Shown here: piece by piece, positions 1 to 64,000 of the stretch
How the letters are laid out: each line of letters opens with the position of its first letter
How positions within the stretch are numbered: position 1 is the first letter of the stretch
Origin: Eledone cirrhosa
Taxonomy: Eukaryota
Reading direction: 5' to 3'
DNA: 64,000 nt
NCBI GenBank assembly: GCA_964016885.1
Contig: OZ024764.1
Location: 20,894,001 to 20,958,000, forward strand
The notes under the pieces: generated by a model
Told to the model about the DNA's origin: nothing
Databases searched by the model: none
Seen by the model: only the letters and a program-made list of their open reading frames with translations
Position numbers and translations under genes: made by a program

Positions 1-2016
1 CAATCCTGACAGTAAGGTGTTCTGGAAATATGTTCATTCAAAGCAGAGACCTCACTCTCCAGTTGGTCCTCTTCGCAATCCCCACACAAGCCAGATCACT
101 GATGATCCCAAGGAATGCGCAGAACTCATTGCTGAGTGCTATGCAAGTATTTTTACTGTTGAAAACCAGAATGTACCATCTCCACCATCTCTAACATCAA
201 ATTCCATAACAACTATGGAATTTACACCTGCAATGTTGCGACGTCACCTTAAGAATAAGCGCAACTATGCCTCCCCTGGTCTTGATGGTGTGACATACCT
301 GCTTCTCAAACGTGGCGGGGATTTCCTTTTGCGCCAGCTTTCTTCTTTCTTTCAATACTGTCTCAGCAATGGTGCTACTCCGGAGCAGTGGAAAACTGCC
401 AGTGTCATTCCCCTGTTCAAAAAGGGCAACCGCATGTCACCTGTCAACTATCGTCCAGTCAGTCTTACTAGCTGTATGGCCAAACTGATGGAATCCTGTG
501 TCAGAGAAACACTTTGGAACTTCTGGAGCTCTCACAGCCTCATCCGGCCCTCACAGTTTGGATTTATCCCTAACTCCAGCTGCTGTGATCAGCTTATCGA
601 GTTCCTTGAGGACATCACCCGGATCACTGACAGCGGCTCATGGGTGGATGTTGTTTACCTTGACTTTGCTAAGGCTTTTAATTCTGTGCCACACAAAAGA
701 CTTATGGCAAAACTCTCTGCAATGGGTGTGAGGGATGATCTTTTCGACTGGCTGAAATCCTTCATTCTCAGCCGAAAGGAAGTAGTCACGGTTCTAGGAC
801 AGCATTCTTCACCATATGAGATGTCATCTGGTGTACCACAGGGATCTGTTCTTGGTCCTCTTTTGTTTGTGGCATATATTAATGACATAGATGCCAACTT
901 ACAGAATGCCACGGTACTAAAATATGCAGATGACATCAAGCTGTACCTTGAAATCAAAAGGACTGATCCTGAAATTTACAACTCTTTCCTACAATCAGAC
1001 CTGGACACAATGCAGCAATGGATCACAGACTGGCAACTGAAGCTGGCTGTGGACAAGTGTACCACCATGCATTTTGGAAGGAAAAATCCAGCGTCCACAT
1101 ACTCCCTCCACAACACTGACATCAAAAAGTCCTCTTGTGAACGTGACCTGGGCATTACTGTCAGCAACGATTTGCGTTGGACAAAGCATGTCTCTAAGAT
1201 TGTCAAGAAGGCCGAGGATGTCTTGGCATCGCTCAGCAAGACCTTTGTTAGCCGCTCTCCAGCCATCTATTTAAAACTGTATACAGCTATGGTGCGACCA
1301 CACTTGGAATTCGCATCATCAGTCTGGAACCCCTATCTTGCTCGGAACATTGACCTCCTGGAAACTGTTCAGAGACGTGCAACCAAGCGCATACCCTCCA
1401 TCAGACACCTACCATACTCTGAACGCCTTGCTTCCCTGGGCATGGATTCATTGAAGCTCCGACGTCTGGCAATGGACTTGGTGAATACCCACAAAGTTTT
1501 TAACCATCTCGCCAACTGCAACCCTGAGCGCCTCTTTGATCTCCATGTGTCTAACACACGTGGACATGCCTACAAGATAAGAAAACAGCACAGCTCCCAT
1601 GACTTTCGCAGACATTTTTTCACGCTCAGAGTTGCTGAAGCATGGAACAAACTACCTGCGTCAATTGTTAGCTGCCGAGACACTGCATCCTTTAAGACAC
1701 TCATGCTTCCCGAAATACGCCAAAACTACACCTGATGTGCCCCTTCCATACACATGCACACATGTGTGCACTGTTCATTTTACTGATGTTTGTGCATTGC
1801 CCTATGTACTGTACATGCACTTTTTTGATGGGTTGTGGTGCACCTGGGCACTGTGCACAATATTTCATTATTGTTATTGTTATTATATCATGACTCATAC
1901 ACTGTTTATTTTCCTGACATTTGTACATTATTCTATGTACTATACATGCACCTTTGATGAGTTGTAGTGCACCTGAGCACTGTACACAATAATTTCATTA
2001 TTATTATTATTATTAT
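1..2016 (+). mobile_element. CR1-clade LINE, 3' half (continues upstream of the window)
   Basis: Open RT frame to 1735, a ~260-bp 3' UTR and an (ATT)n tail at 1997-2016. It is nearly identical to the reverse complement of 57292-59313. Confidence 0.93.
2..1735 (+). CDS. LINE ORF2 reverse transcriptase (5'-partial)
   Basis: Motifs NYRPVSLTS, YLDFAKAFNSV, GVPQGSVLGP and YADD, plus the CR1-type C-terminus TRGH..K...R..FF..RV...WN.LP. Confidence 0.92.
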   Translation, partial: NPDSKVFWKYVHSKQRPHSPVGPLRNPHTSQITDDPKECAELIAECYASIFTVENQNVPSPPSLTSNSITTMEFTPAMLRRHLKNKRNYASPGLDGVTYLLLKRGGDFLLRQLSSFFQYCLSNGATPEQWKTASVIPLFKKGNRMSPVNYRPVSLTSCMAKLMESCVRETLWNFWSSHSLIRPSQFGFIPNSSCCDQLIEFLEDITRITDSGSWVDVVYLDFAKAFNSVPHKRLMAKLSAMGVRDDLFDWLKSFILSRKEVVTVLGQHSSPYEMSSGVPQGSVLGPLLFVAYINDIDANLQNATVLKYADDIKLYLEIKRTDPEIYNSFLQSDLDTMQQWITDWQLKLAVDKCTTMHFGRKNPASTYSLHNTDIKKSSCERDLGITVSNDLRWTKHVSKIVKKAEDVLASLSKTFVSRSPAIYLKLYTAMVRPHLEFASSVWNPYLARNIDLLETVQRRATKRIPSIRHLPYSERLASLGMDSLKLRRLAMDLVNTHKVFNHLANCNPERLFDLHVSNTRGHAYKIRKQHSSHDFRRHFFTLRVAEAWNKLPASIVSCRDTASFKTLMLPEIRQNYT

Positions 2017-50136: not shown

Positions 50137-52594
50137 ATAAAATATATATATATAAAGAGAGAGAGAGAGAAACACACAAACATACACTACTGTATTACAT
50201 ATGTAAGGGGAGATAACTCTCGTTACATCCCCTCTTCTTTTTGATATACGTTCTTTAGTTACTTTGTACAATGGAATCTACTTTATTTTGTGTCCTAAGT
50301 AGATTTCTGTTTAATTATTTACGAGATTCACAATGATTCACGTAACCAAGTTACTTACATAGAGATATATTTCACATAGAATCACAACAAATGAAAATAT
50401 TAAGTCAACACTCTGTCAATCAGTCTCACATCACATGGGGTGCCGGAGTCTCCCTCTAATACTTTCTGAGACAGTCTTACCTCGAGTGATAGCAAGGCTA
50501 AGATGTTGGAACTACCAAACACCCTCATATGTATCACCTGACACCTCGGTAAGGAGAGCTGCCAACGATAACAAGAACCTCGTTGTCAGGGACCTATCTC
50601 CTCCAAACTTCTCCAACACCACAGACTAGAATATTCTACTCTTTATTCCCTATAAAATATATTTCAGTCTAGTCATTTGTCTTGTATCTTGTATATGTAT
50701 TTTCAAAACTAACTGTCACATTTGTAAGACCCCAGTTAGTGATGTTTTCGTCTCCCTCCCACATCCTACATGCTGTAGTAAAAGTGAGGGTCACTGCTTC
50801 TGCAGACGAACGAAATAAAAGTTATACCAGGTGATCTCTGTCAGGGTACTTAGCTTTTCAGGCAACTTAGCCTCCATATGACCCGATCTTACAGGGTACT
50901 CGATTGATCCAGCACCCTACTATTTCTACCAACAGGTTATATCGAGGTATCAAGTGATACTCTTTTCCAGTCAAGACCTCCTCTGCTGTCCTCTGCCTTC
51001 CCACTGCCCTGTTATTCTACAGACTCACGAAAGTGGACACCACCTGAGGAGGGAGTGGTTGGTGTAGTGGTCATCGCTGGCTATTGTCCGAGTGACACAG
51101 GTAAAATACACTACCTAGACTGAGGTGAAACGTCTACCGTCCATTCCTCACCACCAACACCTTACTTTCTCTATTTTAATTACATTTACTGTTTTCAACT
51201 TTATTTTTTTATTACAAACTTTACATAATTTAATTCGGTAAAAATATTTTACGTCACAAAAAAACCTTGAAGCATGCGCAGTGGTGCAGTTGTCGACTTC
51301 CTGTCCACGTGTTAGTCTTCCTACAACATCATTTAGACAACATTTCTGTAAATACTAAACACCTGAGACTATAATGTAAGTATTATGTCTATTAATATTG
51401 TAGATTTAAGCTCACTTTTCACATCACAAATATATATTTTCTTGTTTGTTTCATTACTGGAAATATAAAATGTTATCGTAATTATCTATATTTTACCTAC
51501 CTCTAATTAATTAAAGTGAAAACTTTTGTTGTTGCTGAAAATAAATTAACAAAACTAAATATTTAAATATTCTAAAGGTCGTTTTTATATTATGTGATGA
51601 TATAATTAATATATTTTATTACAATTGTATAAATTTACAGTAGAATAACGTTGTAAATATGTTTTAAATATATACATAAATAACATAAGTGTGTAAATAA
51701 CATTATAAATTGCTGGCAATTCCTTGAGAAAGACATTACAAATATATTGTCTAAACTGTGTATAATAATATAATTTATTGAACAATAATGATAAAGGAAA
51801 GAAAAACACAGTGGGAGATGGCAATTGACCACCAAACGAGGTAAACATTTTCAACTTTCCCCTTTTTTTGCTTTGTCCGAGACAACTCAAAATATTCTTC
51901 AAGGAACAGGATTTTCCATTCGGTTGGATCGAAGGGATTTTACCATTTATAATCTACGGAGAGGAATAACAGATGTTCGGAGGAAAAAAGAATTGTTTGT
52001 GGCAACAACGTAGGGAACCAACCTGGAGCAATTGTATCACACAATTATACTTTCCTCCTTAACATACACTTACAATTTTTCAAAATCAAACCCCCCAAAT
52101 ATAAAATATAAATAATTATAAATGGCGAGGAACCATCCCATCTCCATCTTGAAATAACCTGAATCTATTTATAGTCAGGTGTGACTGAAAGGTCAATCCA
52201 TACTTCCATTCTATTTCACAGAATTAGAAGCTTTGACCACTTGATAGAATTCAGGTCCAGTAATGTAATCACTCCGTAATTGTAAACATCTTGTATCACT
52301 ATCATTCAGGTTTTGATTTTACTTAAGTCTTGCCCATGTTTTTTTTTTTTTTTTTCTTTTTTACACAAACTCACAATTTCGGTTTTTACTGCGGATTTAC
52401 CCATGCGAACTATTACACAAACTCACAGCCTTAGATTTTGTATTTCTAGCGTTTTTATTTTCCTTCTCTTTGCATGTTCAGTGCTCTTTCTCTCCCACTG
52501 TATTTACCTGCCTCTCACATGACCACACTCCTCTCCACGCACTCACCATCTTCTCACTCCTTCTCCACCTTCCATCCCTCCCCTTGCTCAACCC

Positions 52595-55500
52595 TTACTT
52601 CCTCCTCGCGCACAGCCCACCTAGGTATTCGTTCAACCCGCCGGTGGCCCGATGTTTCGACCGAACTATTACCGGCGATTGCCGATTGCTAAAGTTGCCA
52701 CCACTTTAACCTAGTCCACTCTAGGTGGCGGTGGCATGCGTTGAACGACCAAGAGACCTGCTTGGTGGAACGACTAATGTGACAACCGGTCAGCCTTCGA
52801 CCTCTCATTCTCCACCAACTGCAGCACGCACGAGAGGAGCTAACTTGACCCCACCTACCCCTCCTCTCCTTCACGGCAGATTCCGAACGAATCCAACCCG
52901 GCCAACCACACCACCCCTACAACTGTTAGCTCACTACCCAACCCCCGCTTTAGTCCCACCGTTAGAACCACTGTTGTCTCCTTTACTGACTCACTCCCTT
53001 CACCGAATTCCAACGCTGGCCCTCTACTGCCGGCTGTTGCCAGCCCGCCACCTGATTGCACCATCTGTGCTCACACTAACCAGTACTTAAAGACAATTAA
53101 ATGTCACCTATGCCACGCAAGTTACCACAGAAGCTGTGTCGGCATCACCAAAGCTCAAGCCGAAAGGCTTCAACACTGGACCTGCCACTTCAGCTCCGAC
53201 TATTCCGTGGGGATGACCAACACTCTACCGACGACTTTCCACAACTCCGACGACTTTCCAAAGCTCGTTAACCGGACCCTTAAGGGAGCTCGGAACAGCT
53301 TTTCAGGTGCCCTCTCTAATTTACTGAAAAACGTTTGCTCGTCCAACAATAGTCTGGCAGAAATTGTTTTTGTTTCCCCTCATCTCTCTTCACGTGCACA
53401 ATGCGAACTCAGGTTCCCTCAAGTCCTCTCTCAAGCGGCAGTTCCAGCTGTTTGAGTCCACCCCAACCACGTCTCATCTCAGTTCGTCTCCGAGCTCGGT
53501 GTCCACCAACAGACAACCGGTAGACCTCAAGCGAGCCGTCAATGCAAAATTCAGCGAATTTGACATTAAAGGGGCTGTCCTCCCTTGCTCCATACAACTC
53601 TGACTCTCGTGAGCGTCTGAAAGAGAAGCACCCCCAGATGATCAGCAACACTGGCCCGAACCACCAAAATACTTGAGACCGGTTTACACCACCAATATCA
53701 TCAGAAAGGCGATTTCATCCTTCATCCTCAACACCTCAAGGATGGTATCTCCTTATCGGCCGGTGATGCCGGACTCGAGCTCTTGGAGAGTCTGACTCAG
53801 TTTGTGAATCAGTGAACGTTCTCCCGTTCATCCGCCCACTGTTCTTCGGTGCGAAGCTATTTGGTCTCACCAAGCCCAACGAGGACCTGCGCCGCATTGC
53901 GGTTGGCTGCACACCTCGCCGCCTCACTGCAAAGGCTTGATTGCTGTTGGTCTCCAACTCAGTGGCGGAGGAATTTTCCCCCATCCAGCTGTGGGTGGGT
54001 ACCAGGTTGGGATGTGTGGCTGCTGTCCACGCTGCCAGAGCATTTGCCAACTTGCCCTCCTCATCCCCCAAGGTCATCCTCAAACTTGACCTCAGGAATG
54101 CCTTCAACTCCGTCAGCCGTAACATCGTCCTCGGCTCAGTAAGAGAGAGGGTCCCACAGCTCTACCACTTTGCTTGGCAGGCTTATCGGGAGCCCTCCTA
54201 CCTCTCTTTCAGTGACCAGATCATCACCTCTGCCTCAGGAGTCCAACAGGGTGACCCACTAGGGACCCCCCCCCCCCCTCCCGCACTGGACATTGATGAC
54301 GTCACCAAGATGGGGGCTGAGTTGGACCTCAATGTCTGGTAGCTCGACGACGCCTGTTTGGGGGGAACTCTGGATATGGTTCTCGCCACTGCCAACAGGA
54401 TGGTGGAGGAGCTTGGCGCCGGGGACTCCAGATCAATAGCTCCAAATGTGAGCTCTGGATCCTCAACCACCCGGCTTCTTAACACCAACAGCTGATCGAC
54501 CTGTTCGCAGAGTCCTTCCCTTTCATCACGGTCCCTCCCCCATCGGCTTGGTGCTCCTTAGGAGCCCCAATCACAGACCTGGCCTTCGAGTCAACCATCC
54601 AATCGAAGATGGTTGGCCTTGAGCAGCTGCTGAGGAATATTGAAGATATCGAACCCCATCAAGGTTTCTTCTTACTCAGGAACTACCTGTCTATTCCTAA
54701 GCTTCTGTATCTGCTCAGGGTCAGCCCCTCTCACAGATTTCCATCCTGCCTCCAACGCTTCGACGACCTAATCTTCGAGAGACTCGAGTGTCTGGTCAAT
54801 GTTAGTAAGTGTTCGTACCTATCTCTCCCCTGCTTCCTTTCCTCCACCCAAGCTTGCAGCATCCTCTCCTCTCCAACATGGACTAGTTCCAACAGGGAGT
54901 TGTGTGAAGCTCTCCAGCAATGGAGTGAGTTGGGCTTGTCTCTTCCTGAGAAGGTGGAGGACAGTCGAAGTCAGAGAACTTGGGACAGGATACGTTGGAA
55001 TGCCACCTTCGACTCCCTCTTCGTCCTCTCAGATCAGTTTACAAGGTGCCGCTTACCATCTGCCAGCGCCAAATACTCCGGTGACTGGGTCGATGCCTTA
55101 CCCGTGGCCAACGTTGGAGGCCTACTCAGCCTGGATGAACTTCGTGTCTCCATCACCCTCAGAGTGGGAGCTGGCGTCTGCATGGGTTTGAGATGTGGCT
55201 AACTCCTCGACTCCACAGGCCCCCACAGTCTTTCTTGCTGCCTGAATGCCGGCCACTTTGCCCGTCACACGGAGCTAAACTTTATTCTGAAGAGAGCTTT
55301 GGCCCGGGCAAACATCCCCTCGGTCTTGGAACCATCTGGGTTGTCCAGAAGTGACGCAAAAGACCTGACGGCCTTACCCTGTGGCCCTGGTGGAGAGGCA
55401 GGTGCCTAATCTGGGACGTCACTGTTAGTGACTCCTTTGCTCTTTCCCACATCCTTGATGCTGTGGTAAGGACGAGAGCCACAGCTTCGGCAGCCGAGCA

Positions 55501-56047
55501 GAGTAAGACCCTCAAATACTCTGATCTGTCGGCCAGCTACATTTTTCAGCCTGTGGCTTTCGAGACGTTTGGGGGAGTCGGGCCGCTGACTGCGAGGTTC
55601 CTTTCCTCACTGGCGGCTCGCCTTATAGAGGTAACTGGCGAAATCGCGAGGGCGCTTGGCTGCTCCAGCACCTCAGCCTCGCCATCACCCGATGTAACAC
55701 TGCCAGTGTGCTGGCTTGCCTCAAAACTCATTAGAGAGGTTTCCCAGTACCCCTCGTTGCTGTCTTTTGCTCTGGTGTTGGCTCCGTTGTCCACCCCTTC
55801 CTTTACATTTTCTTTAATATTGCAACATTGAAGGAATTTATCTTTCATTGTATCATCCTTTATAGTGTTACCGAGGCATTTGTAATGTTATTTATATATT
55901 TAAAACATATTTGTTATGTTATTCTACTGTAAATTTATTTATATGCTCTGTTTATGTTTTCATTCTGAAGGAACTTATCCACTTGTGTTGATAGAAGTGA
56001 TGCTATGACTTTCCTCTAAGCATTGTGTCATTATAAACGTGAATAAA
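52595..56047 (+). mobile_element. Decayed CRE-like non-LTR retrotransposon (copy 4, RT core retained)
   Basis: KLDLRNAFNSVSR, GVQQGDPLG, W*LDD and RPDG. Colinear with 19290-22776. Confidence 0.85.
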
Positions 56048-56586: not shown

Positions 56587-57579
56587 TGCTACTTTGTTCC
56601 CTGGGGTATGCCTTAGTATTTGACACCATCTATCTGTCTTACTCCCTAACTAGAAAGAAGTCAATCTGTTTCATGTGATTGGTAGGTTATTAGGTGGTTG
56701 GTAGGTTTCTTGAAGTGTTGCAAATGGTTAGTTCACTTGCATCACAAAATACAAGAAGCGTCACTCCTTCATCGTTTCTTGAGCCATAACCATGACCACC
56801 ATGTACCCCAGTGTATCCATCCTGGAGCTGTCCAACATGATTATTGAAGTCCCCTGCTATTATAACTAGGTCTCTGTCATTGTGGTTACCTCTACTTATT
56901 CCTTTTCTACATATGGAGCAGGACCACTTTCCTGAAGGTGTCAGGGTCTTCTCTCCTATCCATTAGCACTTTAGTTTTGGCTAAGTATATTCTCAGAACT
57001 TACCATTTCAAATTCTATATCTATAGCTGGTCATCTACATAGAGAAGTTTCCATAGACAGCCAGTCTTAAACCTCTCTGTTATGGCTTGGAGAACTATGA
57101 TGAACAACAGTGGGCTAAGAACTAAACCATGATGAACTCCTACCTGTACCTTCAATTCTTCACTAGACACACTTTACTGACAGCTTCTCACAAGCCATTC
57201 TTCTACACCTAATTTCCTTAACCCTTTAGTATATAAACTGGCCATATCTGGCCAGAATTCTCCCACATCTTTCTGTTCAAACTGGCCGTAATTAAATAAT
57301 AATAATAATAATGAAATTATTGTGTACAGTGCTCAGGTGCACTACAACTCATCAAAGGTGCATGTATAGTACATAGAATAATGTACAAATGTCAGGAAAA
57401 TGAACAGTGCATGAGTCATGATATAATAACAATAATGAAATATTGTGTATAGTGCCCAGGTGCACCACAACTCATCAAAAAAGTGCATGTACAGTACATA
57501 GGGCAATGCACAAACATCAGTAAAATGAACAGTGCACGAGTCATGATACACACGTGTGCATGTGTATGGAAGGGGTACA

Positions 57580-60345
57580 TCAGGTGTAGTTTTGGCGTAT
57601 TTCGGGAAGCTTGAGTGTCTTAAAGGATGCAGTGTCTCGGCAGCTAACAATTGACGCAGGTAGTTTGTTCCATGCTTCAGCAACTCTGAGCGTGAAAAAA
57701 TGTCTGCGAAAGTCATGGGAGCTGTGCTGTTTTCTTATCTTGTAGGCATGTCCACGTGTGTTAGACACATGGAGATCAAAGAGGCGCTCAGGGTTGCAGT
57801 TGGCGAGATGGTTAAAAACTTTGTAGGTATTCACCAAGTCCATTGCCAGACGTCGGAGCTTCAATGAATCCATGCCCAGGGAAGCAAGGCGTTCAGAGTA
57901 TGGTAGGTGTCTGATGGAGGGTATGCGCTTGGTTGCACGTCTCTGAACAGTTTCCAGGAGGTCAATGTTCCGAGCAAGATAGGGGTTCCAGACTGATGAT
58001 GCGAATTCCAAGTGTGGTCGCACCATAGCTGTATACAGTTTTAAATAGATGGCTGGAGAGCGGCTAACAAAGGTCTTGCTGAGTGATGCCAAGACATCCT
58101 CGGCCTTCTTGACAATCTTAGAGATATGCTTTGTCCAACGCAAATCGTTGCTGACAGTAATGCCCAGGTCACGTTCACAAGAGGACTTTTTGATGTCAGT
58201 GTTGTGGAGGGAGTATGTGGACGCTGGATTTTTCCTTCCAAAATGCATGGTGGTACACTTGTCCACAGCCAGCTTCAGTTGCCAGTCTGTGATCCATTGC
58301 TGCATTGTGTCCAGGTCTGATTGTAGGAAAGAGTTGTAAATTTCAGGATCAGTCCTTTTGATTTCAAGGTACAGCTTGATGTCATCTGCATATTTTAGTA
58401 CCGTGGCATTCTGTAAGTTGGCATCTATGTCATTAATATATGCCACAAACAAAAGAGGACCAAGAACAGATCCCTGTGGTACACCAGATGACATCTCATA
58501 TGGTGAAGAATGCTGTCCTAGAACCGTGACTACTTCCTTTCGGCTGAGAATGAAGGATTTCAGCCAGTCGAAAAGATCATCCCTCACACCCATTGCAGAG
58601 AGTTTTGCCATAAGTCTTTTGTGTGGCACAGAATTAAAAGCCTTAGCAAAGTCAAGGTAAACAACATACACCCATGAGCCGCTGTCAGTGATCCGGGTGA
58701 TGTCCTCAAGGAACTCGATAAGCTGATCACAGCAGCTGGAGTTAGGGATAAATCCAAAGTGTGAGGACCGGATGAGGCTGTGAGAGCTCCAGAAGTTCCA
58801 AAGTGTTTCTCTGACACAGGATTCCATCAGTTTGGCCATACAGCTAGTAAGACTGACTGGACGATAGTTGACAGGTGACATGCGGTTGCCCTTTTTGAAC
58901 AGGGGAATGACACTGGCAGTTTTCCACTGCTCCGGAGTAGCACCATTGCTGAGACAGTATTGAAAGAAAAAAGAAAGCTGGCGCAAAAGGAAATCCCCGC
59001 CACGTTTGAGAAGCAGGTATGTAACACCATCAAGACCAGGGGAGGCATAGTTGCACTTATTCTTAAGGTGACGTCGCAACATTGCAGGTGTAAATTCCAT
59101 AGTTGTTATGGAATTTGATATTAGAGATGGTGGAGATGGTACATTCTGGTTTTCAACAGTAAAAATACTTGCATAGCACTCAGCAATAAGTTCTGCGCAT
59201 TCCTTGGGATCGTCAGTGATCTGGCTTGTGTGGGGATTGCGAAGAGGACCAACTGGAGAGTGAGGTCTCTGCTTTGAATGAACATATTTCCAGAACACCT
59301 TACTGTCAGGATTGGTTGTGATGCACTGTTCAAATTCAAGCACTGCCTTCTTTGTCACTTGCTTGAGATGGTTAGAAGATTTATTCCGCTTTTTTCTGTT
59401 GGCATCTGATTTATGCAGTTTATATTCCCGTTCAGCGTTCCGACGTTCTTTCCTGGCAAGTCGGACTGCTGAAGTTTCCCAGATTGCACTTTTGGGGTGG
59501 TTATTTTTCCGCTTCCGTGGCACTGATGCTGCACACGCTATCCATATTGAGTCCAGGATGCTCTGGAGTATAGAGTTCACATCTCCAGAGTTATACATCT
59601 CATGCCAGTTTGGGCGCTGTAGCTCAGTGCAGTACAAGTTCCAATCCGCCCTCTTCCAATCAAAGCAAGCAGATTGGAGATGGCTCTGGTTTTTGTTGCT
59701 GCCCTCAAGTGCCAGATTGGCAATGATCATAGCATGATCAGAGTCGCCTAGAGGTTCCTCAGTAGTACAACTGATAACCACTTCAGGAGTAGTGGTGAAG
59801 ATCAGGTCCAAAGTGTTGTCACCTCTTGTTGGAGAGGTGACTACTTGTGACCAGTTTGAGTCCAGCACTAGTTCAAGGAAATCGTTTGCACCCTGTGGCC
59901 AACGAAAGGTTTCCCAATCGATCTCAGGATGATTGAAGTCACCTGCAATAAACACATGAGTGGCTGTTTTCTTGGCAGCAACTCTGAGGATATCGCAAAG
60001 CTGTGTGTCCTGATGGTAGTTTGGGGGGCGATAAACAACACCAAGCAGAAGTGTTGACATGGTCATACGTATGTCACAGAAAAAAACTTCTTCCTGTGAT
60101 TCGTTCAAATCAACGCAAGGAATTACCGAAAAGTTTGAACGAACGTAGACCATCACACCACCACCACGGCGGTTAATGCGGTCCTTGCGGAAAAGGTTGT
60201 ACCCAGTAATGGTGAAAACCCCATCACAGAGTAAGGAATGTGCCCATGTTTCCGTGACTGTGATGAAGTCAGGGTCGATGCTTCTGACGTAGGATTCGAA
60301 CAGATGTATCTTGTTGCATAAACTGCGAGCATTTAAGGACAACAA
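57580..60345 (-). CDS. LINE ORF2: AP endonuclease plus reverse transcriptase (no ATG at the N-terminus)
   Basis: LNARSL, VTETW, YRPP, GDFN, LDL and SDH, then RT with YADD. The 921 codons are open, and the frame stays open upstream into the end of ORF1. Confidence 0.95.
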   Translation of the reverse strand: MLSLNARSLCNKIHLFESYVRSIDPDFITVTETWAHSLLCDGVFTITGYNLFRKDRINRRGGGVMVYVRSNFSVIPCVDLNESQEEVFFCDIRMTMSTLLLGVVYRPPNYHQDTQLCDILRVAAKKTATHVFIAGDFNHPEIDWETFRWPQGANDFLELVLDSNWSQVVTSPTRGDNTLDLIFTTTPEVVISCTTEEPLGDSDHAMIIANLALEGSNKNQSHLQSACFDWKRADWNLYCTELQRPNWHEMYNSGDVNSILQSILDSIWIACAASVPRKRKNNHPKSAIWETSAVRLARKERRNAEREYKLHKSDANRKKRNKSSNHLKQVTKKAVLEFEQCITTNPDSKVFWKYVHSKQRPHSPVGPLRNPHTSQITDDPKECAELIAECYASIFTVENQNVPSPPSLISNSITTMEFTPAMLRRHLKNKCNYASPGLDGVTYLLLKRGGDFLLRQLSFFFQYCLSNGATPEQWKTASVIPLFKKGNRMSPVNYRPVSLTSCMAKLMESCVRETLWNFWSSHSLIRSSHFGFIPNSSCCDQLIEFLEDITRITDSGSWVYVVYLDFAKAFNSVPHKRLMAKLSAMGVRDDLFDWLKSFILSRKEVVTVLGQHSSPYEMSSGVPQGSVLGPLLFVAYINDIDANLQNATVLKYADDIKLYLEIKRTDPEIYNSFLQSDLDTMQQWITDWQLKLAVDKCTTMHFGRKNPASTYSLHNTDIKKSSCERDLGITVSNDLRWTKHISKIVKKAEDVLASLSKTFVSRSPAIYLKLYTAMVRPHLEFASSVWNPYLARNIDLLETVQRRATKRIPSIRHLPYSERLASLGMDSLKLRRLAMDLVNTYKVFNHLANCNPERLFDLHVSNTRGHAYKIRKQHSSHDFRRHFFTLRVAEAWNKLPASIVSCRDTASFKTLKLPEIRQNYT

Positions 60346-60401
60346 TTTGTACCCTGCTCGCAGTTTATGATGGTGTGTAGAGGGTGGCAGGTTGTTCTGG
60401 T

Positions 60402-61769
60402 TTAGTTTCCCAGAGTTGTAGCAGTTTTTACATTGCCAGTTATTGTGGGTAGATCACACTCAGACCAGCTGGTATCTCTCTTCCACGTTTCACCAGCCTT
60501 GACAAACCTCCAGATCTGCCCATCATCACGCAGACTGAAACTTTCATCTTGTGCTGAGTTGCGATTCAAGGAAGCTGCAGCACGTAGTTTTGGACGTACA
60601 TGGGGTGGTAGGCCTGGGCGTGTTCGGAAGGTAATCCGATTTTCACGCCCAGCTTTAGCAGAGGCCAGATGATATGAGGTTGCCTCTGCGGGGTCCGAGA
60701 AAGACAGCCTGATGAGTCTGGGTTTTGGACCAGGTCGACCAAGGCGGAGGGCACCCTTTGGGGGAACACAGCCTAGGTCTTTGGCCGAGCTGGCAGCAAA
60801 TGCCTGAAGATCGGCCTTGTCTTCTGGTACCCCAATGGCAATCACTTCATGGGTAGTAGATTCCGCAGTCTTTTCAGTCTTTCCAGCAAGAGGTACAGGG
60901 AGATTCTTTAGCAAGGCATTCCGATAAGACCCCTCATTGTGGGGTCCTACCCGAATGCTTGCCTCTATTCCTGCAACTTCCCTTCTCAGAGCAGAAATCA
61001 TTAGTTGCAGTTCCGCAAAATCTGTACTGGTCGGTTGTTGTTGTTGTTGCTGCTGCTGCTGCTGTCGTTGTTGGTGATGATGATGTTCCTCCACGGGAAT
61101 GGCAGGGGAGGACACAGTCGCAGGTTGTTGATGTTGTTGTTGTTGGTGATGATGTTCCTCCACGGGAATGGCAGGGGAGGACACAGTCGCAGGTTGTTGC
61201 TGTTGTTGTTGTTGGTGATGATGATGTTCCTCCACGGGAATGGTAGGGGAAGACACAGTCACCAGTTGTTAGTGTCGAGATGTACTGGGAGTGGAAGACA
61301 TGAGTTGTTGTTGTTTCTGATGTTCTCCCACAGGAATAACAGTAGAAGCCAGTGTCATAGGTTTTTGCCGTTGTTCAGTAACAATGGTAGAGGAAGACAC
61401 AGTCATTGGTTTTTGTTGTTGTTGTTGTTTTTCAATAACATCAATAACATTCGTGGAGGCAGGCACACAGGCCAGACACTGAAAGGACCAGGATTTTAGC
61501 TGGACCATCTCCCATATTCCATCCATCATAGCATTATGATGTCTCTTTTTTGGGCCTGGGATCCTCCGGAAGCCTGTGGCGCATTGAAGGCAGACAGAGA
61601 TGCGACAGGTTCCACATTCGACCCAGCGATTACGGAACGAGTTTTCGGGTTCCGCACAGATATGGCAGATGTGATTTTCTGGGCAATGTTCTATCTTGGG
61701 ACATCGGCCGGTTTTGTCGCATATTTCATCGATGGATATCACCATGGCAATTTTGTTATTTCTACCCAT
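60402..61769 (-). CDS. LINE ORF1 (PHD-like Cys finger, Q/H-rich repeats), interrupted by one in-frame TAA at 61269-61271
   Basis: The two listed ORFs are in the same frame (CAC TAA CAA CTG GTG). They contain CHIC..CGTC..CLQC..CLAC and RLG....KPRLIRLSF. Confidence 0.82.
61030..61432 (-). repeat. Coding tandem repeat in ORF1 (TVSSPAIPVEEHHHQQQQ)
   Basis: Three close and about three degenerate ~63-66-bp units with CAA/CAT runs. Confidence 0.85.
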
Positions 61770-62272
61770 CCGTAGAAAAACACAGAATGTAAACAATATA
61801 GGTTTAGCGCACTTGATTACGATAGAAATAAAATGTCTGTTTTTTTGTGTATTTTGTTTCCGTTTTCCTAAATGTTGTGTGCGTACAGAAGAGTCTGAAT
61901 TACATTACATGTAAACAAATAAATATGCTGCGTAAGTTAAATGAAACGTACTGTAGAAGGCAGTTGTTTATTAACAGCGAAATAAGGTTTTTTTTTTTTT
62001 TTTTTTTTTTTTTGCAGGATAGAAATATAAGGTTGCACTTACCAATGAAACGGTCGTAAATACCTGGATAAAATCCTTCTCTTAATGCTTACCTGTGTTT
62101 TCTCTTTTATACTATATATATATATAATGGGTGGAGTCTTCGATTGAGGGTGGAGTCTTCGACTTGGCCTGAGCATGGACTCAAACTCAAATGAAATGAA
62201 ATGAAATGGAATACTGTTGGCTTTTTGCTACAATAATTTCTATATTCTTCATTTATATATATATATATATCT

Positions 62273-62472: not shown

Positions 62473-64000
62473 CTGTGGTACCTTGACTTATGAGTTTAAT
62501 TTGTTCCGTGGAGGACCTCATAACTTAAATTACTCATATGTCAAATCAATTTTCCCCACTGAAATAAAATAAATGCCGTTAATCCGTTCCAGACCCCCCA
62601 AAAACCACAGTTTGTTTTGTGACGTGTTTTTAAATAAGAAAAATGTACTTATAAATAACAAATATTGTATATAAAAAACAATACAATAGAATGTACTACA
62701 ATAAACTGGTTTTATTAAGTATAATGTACAGCATCTATCTTGGAGATCAGACGACTTGAGGATGTTGACGGAGGAGAAAGGATGAACTGAATAACTGAAT
62801 CTTATTCGCTGATTTTTGCCCTTTTCGCCACGCTTTCCTCACTTTTATCTGCAGGGATTTTCAATAAAAACCTGTCTAATAAGGTTTGTTTCATCTCACT
62901 TGTTGAGATAACCTCCTCTGTGTCACCTATTTCCTGCAAAAACTCCGTGTGTTGCTGTGTCTGTAGCTCCTTTAATTCCTTCGTTGTCATCTCCTCGGAG
63001 TGCTCCTCGATGAGCTCGTTGATGTCACCTTCATCCATGTCCAGGCCCATGGACTTACCGAGGGGTACAATCTCCTCCACCACTGCCGCTTCGGGTTCGA
63101 GTCTTTCAAAGTCTGTTTTAGACACAACCTCAGGCCACAGCTTCTTCCATGTAGAGGTCAAGGTCCTCTTTGTAAGACCCTGCCAGTTCATATCGATAAT
63201 TCTGAGGCATATCACGATGTTATAATGGTCCTTCCAGACCTCTCAAGGGTGAGGTTTGTGCTCCCCGTCACTTCAAAGCAGCGACTGAACAGGTGCTTAG
63301 TGAAGAGCTTCTTGAAATTAGAAAGTACCTGCTGGTCCTTGGGTTGTAGGATAGGGGTGGTGTTTGGTGGAAGGTAGAGGACCTTTATAAACTTGAACTC
63401 TTCGAGGTTAGGTGGATGAGCAGTTGCACTGTCTAGGACAAGAAGGGTTTACAGGGGTAGGTTATTTTCCTGGAGATATTTTTTAACGTCAGGACCAAAG
63501 ACCAAATTCACCCACTCCACAAAGAACTACCTGGTGACCCATGACCTCGGGTTTGCCCTCCACAAAACCTGCAGTTTTTCTTTCAGAATCTTATGTGACT
63601 TAAAGGTTCTGGAGTTTTCTGAATGATAAACGAGCGGCAACTTAATCTTACACTCGCCGCTCAGTGGCACACAGTGCGAGGGTTAGCCTATCCTTCATGG
63701 GTTTGTGGCGAGGCATCCTCTTCTCCTCTGCCATTATATAAGTCCTCCTTGGCATCTTCTTCCAAAAAAGTCCTGTTTCATCACAGTTAAAGACTTGCTG
63801 AGGGATGTATCCTTTGGCTGCTATAATTCAGGCAAAGGTTTTGAGGTAATCCTCAGCTGCCTTCATATCCGCGCTCGCTGCCTCACCATTCCTGACAACG
63901 GAGTGAATGCCGGCCCTCTTTTTAAAATTCTCAAACCAACCCCGACTGGCATTAAAGGGCTTGCCGATGCCTCGTCCGTAGAAGTACCTGGGGTTTGCTG
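62473..64000 (-). mobile_element. Tigger/pogo transposon (runs off the window)
   Basis: TIR at 62473. FNASRGWFENFKKRAGIHS and VFNCDETGLFWKKMP are present here, and part of this is deleted in the 32801 copy. Confidence 0.9.

Follow-up and report, generated by a model that had tools for sequence, protein, structure and literature searches.

The LINE copy and the junction of its reading frames

The window analysed here, a 64,000-nucleotide stretch of the Eledone cirrhosa genome, carries on its minus strand a full-length copy of a CR1-type LINE with the following features.

57320..62010 (ends approximate), minus strand: CR1-type LINE; its 5' end is the start of the match to other copies
60402..61769, minus strand: ORF1, with a Cys/His-rich N-terminus, Gln-rich repeats and a C-terminal domain
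57580..60453, minus strand: ORF2, in the -1 frame, open from 14 codons upstream of the heptamer
60411-60405, minus strand: slippery heptamer GGGAAAC (G_GGA_AAC) in the X_XXY_YYZ phase of ORF1, read from the sequence
60404-60402, minus strand: ORF1 stop codon TAA, directly 3' of the heptamer (ORF list)
60398-60391 with 60343-60336 in the stem loop, minus strand: weak candidate extra helix with a 6-nt spacer, which would form a pseudoknot
60390-60388, minus strand: in-frame CTG, 11 nt past the ORF1 stop, candidate non-AUG start in a rival model
60369-60355 (conserved core 60369-60361), minus strand: stem 5' arm, starting 35 nt past the heptamer
60331-60317 (conserved core 60325-60317), minus strand: stem 3' arm, overlapping codons of the endonuclease NARSLC motif
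About 60339-59722 and about 58890-58204, minus strand: ORF2 endonuclease and reverse transcriptase (RT) (Pfam)
60153-60151, minus strand: first ORF2 ATG, inside the endonuclease

ORF2 matches the endonuclease models PF03372/PF14529 followed by the RT model PF00078, all above the Pfam cut-off, and these are the only three families at E ≤ 0.1, with no RNase H or other C-terminal domain. This order of APE endonuclease and RT without RNase H assigns the element, by sequence, to the CR1 group (Jockey superfamily) of LINEs, and the short tandem repeats at its 3' end and the interspersed, frequently 5'-truncated copies are features of that group. The label CR1 itself is one that we presume from sequence motifs, the trees described below containing unnamed loci only. 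The 3' UTR has a duplicated end of ~100 nt and an ATT-rich tail; other copies lie on many contigs of the same genome, many of them 5'-truncated. Copies are more than 99% alike and some have unbroken frames; the family is young, abundant, and recently active. ORF1 has no Pfam match at cut-off and nothing significant in a PDB sequence search. Look-alikes in the Atlas with PHD and Baculo_FP_2nd families, at scores of 0.83–0.89, are a lead only; a PHD-type finger in ORF1 is typical of invertebrate CR1/L2 elements. The window ORF1 is interrupted by a TAA at 61271-61269 that the initial annotation had missed, so that ribosomes starting at the ORF1 ATG of this copy would not reach the junction. Of 17 copies spanning this position, 15 have CAA, and ORF1 is stop-free, with 456–483 aa, in six other copies.

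The initial annotation had proposed a -1 ribosomal frameshift cassette, composed of a heptamer and a downstream stem, that joins ORF1 to an ORF2 without a usable ATG, and the elements it described were found in place. G_GGA_AAC stands in exact slippery phase directly before the ORF1 stop; ORF2, with its Pfam endonuclease and RT domains, occupies the open -1 frame over 957 codons from stop to stop (60453 to 57580), and its first ATG follows LNARS and TETW as codon 87 counted from GGG, 60 codons past the Asn of LNARS. The junction therefore presents two canonical features of -1 frameshifting, namely a heptamer in the phase of the upstream ORF and a -1 frame that is open, and start-less, into the downstream domain. 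With no ATG until codon 87 it has no adjacent or overlapping stop and AUG of the SART1 type, and it has no NPGP motif. G_GGA_AAC is counted among the most shifty heptamers (PMC5009743).

Some 35 nt downstream lies the perfect 15-bp inverted repeat with a 23-nt loop, again as annotated; of the 13 pairs identified in 57300–62100, no other perfect one is as long. Its fold has a z of -4.92, none of 200 shuffles being as stable, and triplet shuffling of the element, repeated 300 times, never produced such a repeat. Its spacer is, as the initial annotation had remarked, longer than usual (35 nt, versus 5–9 or 11–15 nt; PMC5009743), and simple folding predicts no stable 3' structure at the canonical 5–9 nt past the heptamer.

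Conservation of heptamer and stem

The junction pattern has 405 matches in the genome, compared with 0 for the control, and is thus a family trait. The heptamer is intact in 71 of the 73 distinct junctions of this genome, and in a second subfamily with 81% DNA identity the heptamer and stop are kept in 30 of 30 copies, so that the conservation by which the initial annotation had suggested checking its proposal is evident in both. It had also named two sequence observations that would speak against it, an ATG upstream of LNARS and a single continuous ORF; neither was found, and all 73 junctions lack an ATG upstream of the endonuclease Asn. Protein searches of the same genome with three diverged queries returned only subfamilies of the window family. 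A search for another family with the same layout gave 41 pattern matches; the main new family among them, a repeat family with GGGAAACTAG that accounts for 15 of the 20 fetched loci, lacks both a long ORF upstream of the heptamer and an endonuclease downstream. It was rejected as a chance match to a tight pattern and not a LINE junction, and loci L223 and L224 are not junctions either.

Outside this genome, the heptamer is kept at the nucleotide level across diverged relatives, a further canonical feature of -1 frameshifting, and the layout of heptamer then stop recurs in L091, L101, L127, and L263. The metagenome contig L091, whose ORF2 is 54% and ORF1 42–54% identical to the window family, keeps 9 of 10 bases at the heptamer plus stop, whereas its flanks are near random, with 11 of 30 bases kept on the 5' side and 13 of 45 on the 3' side. 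It has no CTG at the matching place, no such stem and a different downstream sequence, and an ATG lies two codons upstream of its endonuclease Asn; the N-terminus of a protein homologue, P0003, matches its ORF2. Contigs of runs X1, X2, and X4, from another organism, have 10–11 differences and two 3-nt deletions across the junction, and none of the differences listed falls in the heptamer, stop or stem arms. Loose contig ends of runs X1, X3, and X4 represent a subfamily with three changes in the stem 5' arm; two of these would disrupt pairing if the 3' arm, which the contig ends do not show, had not changed in parallel. Contigs from runs guessed to be RNA contain no joints at the junction, although contigs cannot show the absence of expression or splicing; one DNA-type contig has a 74-nt skip there. 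A scan of viral contigs found nothing.

The stem is conserved in part. In its outer 9 bp, 99% of cells are paired; a single event there replaced A-U by G-C, altering both sides, and three changes affect one side only, while linker bases flanking the 5' arm vary. Pairing of the inner 6 bp drops to 60% of cells, and just the youngest subfamily has all 15 bp. The covariation sought in the initial annotation was accordingly seen once in the outer part, and the inner part was not kept. The candidate extra helix forms 7 of 8 pairs, with one double change in one copy; it lies outside the predicted fold, and judged from duplex energies only (-2 to -6 kcal/mol), the putative pseudoknot is weaker than the simple hairpin. 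Rfam has no family at the junction and gave one chance match. At 46 sites in distant LINEs, the 80-nt stretch 3' of the heptamer is no more stable than its shuffles (z averages -0.38, and just 3 of 46 are below -2), and column pairing in 22 loci of the G_GAA_AAC group yields no shared downstream helix. Because only the outer 9 bp are kept, the 54% relative differs downstream, and relatives have no general hairpin, heptamer and stem are both present but their unity as one cassette is not established.

Heptamers in the overlaps of distant LINEs

Among distant LINEs with a -1 overlap, 38 of 46 have one of four heptamers inside the overlap in the productive phase, compared with 0 and 2 in the other two phases and 1.3 expected from ORF1 bodies. 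The commonest word, G_GAA_AAC (23 of the 46 sites), joined this set after the data were seen; with the wider, prior definition X_XXY_YYZ the counts are 45 in the productive phase versus 3 and 9, with 11.9 expected. Since the loci are related, binomial p-values overstate these differences. By clusters at 60% identity, 31 of the 35 that hold a -1 overlap have a heptamer, and the in-phase background is 7 per 12,679 positions. No heptamer occurs in the ten elements of the +1-overlap class, nine of which have an upstream ATG. Eight of the 46 lack the four heptamers, and six of these have a run of five G instead; L140 is a locus with such a run. In a hold-out set two of four -1 overlaps have a heptamer and two do not; hold-out locus L263 has the exact layout of the window, as G_GGA_AAC_UGA. 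The 2,497 codons from heptamer to endonuclease contain no stops (251 expected), a count that we do not use as evidence, since restricting the site search to the open stretch makes it in part circular.

The heptamer is located at five different places of ORF1 and in most distant relatives overlaps a conserved [EK]N peptide motif. The dipeptides [EKGL]N are spelled by a heptamer in 38 of 58 cases in overlaps; in the bodies of ORF1 and ORF2 the figures are 7 of 193 and 6 of 430, respectively, and the excess is thus not a peptide effect. In 19 of the 38 heptamer LINEs no more than 21 nt separate the ORF1 stop from the endonuclease Asn, which leaves no room for downstream reinitiation. A fixed GTGGTAGG motif is present at G_GAA_AAC loci such as L124. 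Other relatives have ORFs separated by one UGA-C stop, which suggests readthrough; at locus L242 the sequence is UGA-CUA. In a tree of endonuclease and RT the window family groups with +1/ATG and same-frame elements (support 1.0), and in a tree of the endonuclease only it adjoins L093; as it is not firmly in the main frameshift group, the distant relatives support the reading for this family by analogy more than by descent.

Origin of ORF2 protein and comparison with known systems

Comparative sequence data establish the phase-specific excess of heptamers in relatives together with the layout and its conservation, and we judge it likely, with a probability of about 0.7, that ORF2 is made as an ORF1–ORF2 fusion by -1 frameshifting. 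A minority of ribosomes would slip back one base on G_GGA_AAC and produce a fusion of about 1,400 residues, and most would stop at TAA and release ORF1p, a division that would probably set a high ratio of ORF1p to ORF2p, as gag/pol shifting does. Our first guess for the stimulator is slow decoding of the stop codon adjoining the heptamer; the stem at +35 nt or the weak pseudoknot starting at +7 may help. The predicted tryptic junction peptide is TATTLGNLNQNNLPPSTHHHK, or LNQNNLPPSTHHHK if Lys is read. The fusion proposed in the initial annotation is well supported in this way, and its coupling of heptamer and stem is not established.

In an alternative that the initial annotation had also named, stem-aided non-AUG reinitiation, ribosomes would terminate at the TAA of ORF1 and resume at the in-frame CTG, or at another non-AUG codon, with the stem ~20 nt further stalling the scanning subunit and ORF2p as a separate protein. 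The CTG, preceded by an A at position -3, persists in 11 of 13 aligned subfamily representatives, the ORF1 stop of the window family, 71 nt upstream of the Asn, leaves room for such a restart, and subfamilies share the outer 9 bp of the stem. A hairpin shortly past a weak start codon reportedly aids initiation. SART1 ORF2 initiation needs a downstream RNA structure (PMC3708506), and the L1 ORF2 ATG is replaceable by any sense codon (PMC1965478). We nevertheless regard reinitiation as improbable, because it explains neither why heptamer and stop alone are kept in L091, which has no CTG there and no such stem, nor why 38 of 46 relatives, half of these 38 without room to reinitiate, have heptamers in the productive phase. 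It is still less probable that the heptamer arose by chance or encodes a conserved Gly-Asn end of ORF1p, ORF2 being made from an IRES, a sub-genomic RNA or by splicing. Its position on [EK]N in most distant relatives and the chance matches of the GGGAAACTAG repeat family are in keeping with such an origin, but synonymous positions are fixed (38/58 vs. 13/623), the background of heptamers is low, and internal initiation, too, would require a start codon upstream of the endonuclease.

A further alternative, compatible with the frameshift fusion, concerns the role of the stem only: it may have no part in translation, its core serving RNA packaging or stability and the perfect 15 bp of the youngest subfamily having arisen by template switching that perfects near-palindromes. 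The incomplete pairing of the inner 6 bp, the restriction of the full 15 bp to the youngest subfamily, the fixation of the 3' arm by the NARSLC motif, and the 5'-arm changes in the loose contig ends argue for this, and the constancy of the outer 9 bp beside a varying linker argues against it; we put it slightly below an even chance.

The frameshift fusion may be part of a wider pattern, to which we give even odds, in which ORF2 of CR1-group LINEs is in general, throughout the animals, produced as a recoded ORF1–ORF2 fusion and the elements have switched in evolution between -1 frameshifting and UGA-C readthrough, as retroviruses have for gag-pol, some without a classical stimulator and with an adjacent stop or linear 3' motif instead. 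The -1 sites would here be either a G5 run or slippery heptamers, the latter occupying at least five different places of ORF1. If true, a heptamer-dependent shift in a LINE group that ranks among the most widespread predicts an RNP protein that is an ORF1–ORF2 fusion, unlike that of L1. It would explain why many CR1 ORF2 annotations have no usable ATG and are cut short within the endonuclease, and it would add numerous cellular signals for frameshifting and readthrough, of which some seem to lack a classical stimulator. The youth of the family and its copies with unbroken frames make testing practical.

Translation of ORF2 in bicistronic LINEs is described as unclear (PMC3708506), reinitiation being the working model from L1 and SART1. 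Both share with the present element a bicistronic RNA, and their ORF2 depends on ORF1 translation (PMC2881922); SART1 uses a UAAUG stop-start and L1 has non-overlapping ORFs with an ATG, whereas the present element has a -1 overlap on a heptamer and no ATG. The 2A StopGo peptides reported for CR1/L2/Rex1/Crack/Ingi elements (PMC3708506) are virus-like recoding within CR1-group LINEs, but they cut one ORF into two products, and the text of that paper does not mention frameshifting or readthrough. A literature search covering work other than the 1990s descriptions of CR1 and T1 found no report of -1 frameshifting for CR1. Those descriptions reportedly have ORFs that overlap or lie close together, and frameshifting may already have been proposed in them. 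Frameshifting of viruses and LTR elements resembles the present case in heptamer class, phase, and fusion of an upstream structural protein to a polymerase; the present case differs as a non-LTR element without a protease to cut the fusion and without a demonstrated structure at 5–9 nt. Among non-LTR elements, the gag gene of Drosophila HeT-A needs a frameshift (PMC5009743), which, unlike that proposed here, occurs within gag in an element without ORF2 or RT. Comparable, too, are Dictyostelium TRE5-A and TRE3-A, APE-type elements for which a review figure legend states that a -1 frameshift is required for ORF2 (PMC5911963); they are of a different lineage, with a C-terminal zinc finger in ORF2, and the passages on them name no heptamer. 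A -1 frameshift as a LINE ORF2 mechanism is thus already stated for TRE5-A and TRE3-A, and frameshifting for HeT-A.

Layout of the ORF1/ORF2 junction

On the minus strand, ORF1 of the CR1-type LINE ends CTG GGA AAC TAA, so that the slippery heptamer GGGAAAC stands in ORF1 phase before the stop as the initial annotation had described. The same annotation was right in taking the open -1 frame for that of ORF2, in finding no ORF2 ATG until after LNARS and TETW, and in placing a perfect 15-bp inverted repeat (the stem) 35 nt past the heptamer, a spacer that exceeds the usual 5–9 nt.

60453–57580, minus strand: -1 frame (ORF2), open, encoding APE endonuclease and RT
60414–60396, minus strand: 5-bp hairpin enclosing heptamer and stop, kept across subfamilies with G-U changes
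60411–60405, minus strand: heptamer G_GGA_AAC
60404–60402, minus strand: ORF1 stop TAA
60369–60355 and 60331–60317, minus strand: arms of the stem
60153–60151, minus strand: first ATG of ORF2, 87th codon counted from the heptamer

The inverted repeat (fold z -4.92) was equalled in 0 of 300 triplet shuffles. ORF1 of the window copy carries a premature TAA where 15 of 17 copies have CAA, and in six other copies ORF1 is unbroken. Gln/His-rich tandem repeats occupy 61060–61420 (minus strand) of ORF1, whose intact length is 456–483 aa among copies. A second, inverted copy (locus L002) covers window positions 1–1852 on the plus strand, starts just outside the window, and has a junction identical over 451 nt. 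The ORF1 of L002 stays open over roughly the same 289 codons and the premature TAA is present in 2 of 17 copies, suggesting a local inverted duplication. The window also holds broken retroelement remains (52300–55900, plus strand) with a PHD-like CHLCHASYHRSC segment, RT motifs, and a C-terminal nuclease-like RKRPDG segment, and, upstream of the LINE, decayed DDE transposase-like frames (62800–64000, minus strand), which from their motifs we take to be of Tigger/pogo type.

Conservation within the family and among distant relatives

The junction pattern gave 405 matches in the own genome versus 0 for the control. Of 1,311 candidates, the top 30 are more than 99% alike, and heptamer, stop, and stem arms are unchanged in all 30. 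With diverged protein queries we recovered further, older copies along with a second subfamily at 81%, and a pattern search found one instance of a third (L221). In a census of 129 loci, 125 were parsable and 73 distinct, seven loci coming from a pattern that required the heptamer. The heptamer is intact in 71 of the 73 distinct junctions, and a stop follows in all 73; an ATG ahead of the endonuclease Asn (of LNARS), named beforehand as a refuter, occurs in none. Some 35 copies lie in a single orientation, 30–80 kb apart, at 124.7–126.35 Mb of contig G000:C28 (L271–L274), where one unit combines a 5'-truncated copy with its junction kept, nested tandem repeats, and a histone 3' stem-loop. The element was likely amplified there within a repeated gene cluster, and copy counts are thus not all independent insertions.

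We scanned metagenome contigs and could place the endonuclease start in 78 of the best 80 of 447 loci. The nearest relative among them, L091 (ORF2 54%, ORF1 42–54%), has an ORF1 frame ending CAG GGA AAC TAG and shares 9/10 bases with the window at heptamer and stop versus 11/30 and 13/45 in the flanks; its ORF1 is broken in its contig and an ATG lies two codons ahead of Asn. Classes were set by the longest upstream ORF (at least 120 aa), blind to heptamers, and comprised 46 -1 overlaps, 10 +1, 7 same frame, 4 gaps, and 11 without ORF1. One of four heptamers lies in productive phase in 38 of the 46 -1 overlaps, a set that G_GAA_AAC joined after the data were seen; the prior wide definition X_XXY_YYZ gave 45 in productive phase, with 3 and 9 in the others and 11.9 expected. 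As the [EK]N of an ORF1 motif is encoded at many of these sites, we tested synonymous choice: such dipeptides spell a heptamer in 38/58 cases in overlaps versus 7/193 in ORF1 bodies and 6/430 in ORF2 bodies. The sites occupy five different ORF1 places, a median of 3 codons past the last -1-frame stop, and occur in 31/35 clusters at 60% identity and 11/15 at 50%; in 19 of the 38, Asn and the ORF1 stop are no more than 21 nt apart. The 46 hold-out loci, 22 of them placeable, included four -1 overlaps. Two of these carry a heptamer, and one of the two, L263, has the window's exact heptamer-stop layout. Judged from sequence, the slippery site at the ATG-less ORF1/ORF2 overlap is real, family-wide, and deeply conserved. 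The position of the window family differs between two trees and is hence unstable, so this family may owe its signal to an origin separate from that in the main group.

Seven -1 overlaps lacking the four heptamers (L108, L115, L129, L130, L140, L144, and L241) have a five-G run at the homologous place, preceding G-rich stem-like sequence; the run is a possible unusual shift site, and L156, which belongs to this group, carries G_GGA_AAC instead. Eukaryotic LINE sequence within many prokaryote genome bins (46 loci, L225–L270) is contamination of those assemblies.

Other relatives have ORF1 and ORF2 in one frame with a single stop between, TGA followed by C in 14 of 15 loci (the same-frame class of both sets, plus three with shortened ORF1, minus L102, L127, and L168, set aside for having a heptamer and damaged ORF1).

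TGA-C loci: L132, L155, L165, L167, L228 and L229 (near copies), L235, L236, L237, L239, L240, L242, L248, L255

An ATG well ahead of the endonuclease is missing in 12 of the 14, and seven have TGA-CTA, a leaky readthrough context. Together with the -1 heptamers, this class suggests that CR1-group LINEs often form a fusion by recoding.

Candidate stimulators

Pairing in the stem, scored on 13 representatives, is kept in 99% of cells for the outer 9 bp, where there are three one-sided changes and a single event that turned A-U into G-C; it drops to 60% for the inner 6 bp, so the full 15 perfect bp characterize the youngest subfamily. Sequencing runs X1, X2, and X4, from another organism, show 10–11 differences near the junction, none of those listed in heptamer, stop, or arms; loose contig ends in X1, X3, and X4 suggest a further subfamily with an altered 5' arm. 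Stimulator spacing is 5–9 nt usually and 11–15 nt in protein-aided cases (PMC5009743), so at 35 nt the stem is not a classical stimulator. A weak candidate helix, joining the stretch that starts at +7 to the loop of the stem, has 7/8 pairs, with one double change in one copy. No general fold was found 3' of the heptamer (mean z -0.38 over 46 sites), nor a shared downstream helix in 22 aligned loci of the G_GAA_AAC group (L092–L169). That group has a fixed motif, GTGGTAGG, at +13 to +20 past the heptamer, third codon positions included (19 of the 22; GTTGTAGG in two, neither in one), which is not present in the window's family and may act as a linear 3' stimulator or reflect a dual-coding constraint. 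The stop lies directly behind the heptamer in five elements (the window family, L091, L263, and, as U_UUA_AAC-stop, L101 and L127); this adjacency makes a ribosome pause at the stop codon our preferred candidate stimulator.

Translation of ORF2 and known systems

We consider it probable (about 0.7), from sequence comparison, that ORF2 is made by -1 frameshifting at the heptamer. The majority of ribosomes would terminate at UAA, and a few would likely slip -1, with the Gly and Asn tRNAs shifting from GGA AAC to GGG AAA, and continue as Leu-Asn-Gln, giving a predicted fusion product of about 457 + 941 residues. Reinitiation at the CTG 11 nt past the ORF1 stop, aided by the stem, agrees with the stem's place and has a precedent in SART1, which employs downstream structure (PMC3708506), but it does not account for the conservation pattern and seems unlikely. 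Less probable still is a chance heptamer or synthesis of ORF2 by other routes.

We found no report of a slippery heptamer at CR1 junctions in the full-text literature; subscription papers, 1990s CR1/T1 descriptions, and Repbase notes lie outside that scope, so an earlier mention is possible. Related sources are PMC2881922, PMC1965478, PMC11835228, PMC5006619, PMC2734521, PMC11512398, and PMC13405545. The proposed event would be recoding of a known kind in a group for which those sources yielded no such report. Earlier papers describe frameshifting in HeT-A and unconventional initiation for mammalian LINEs (PMC5009743), and state a -1 frameshift for TRE5-A/TRE3-A (PMC5911963).
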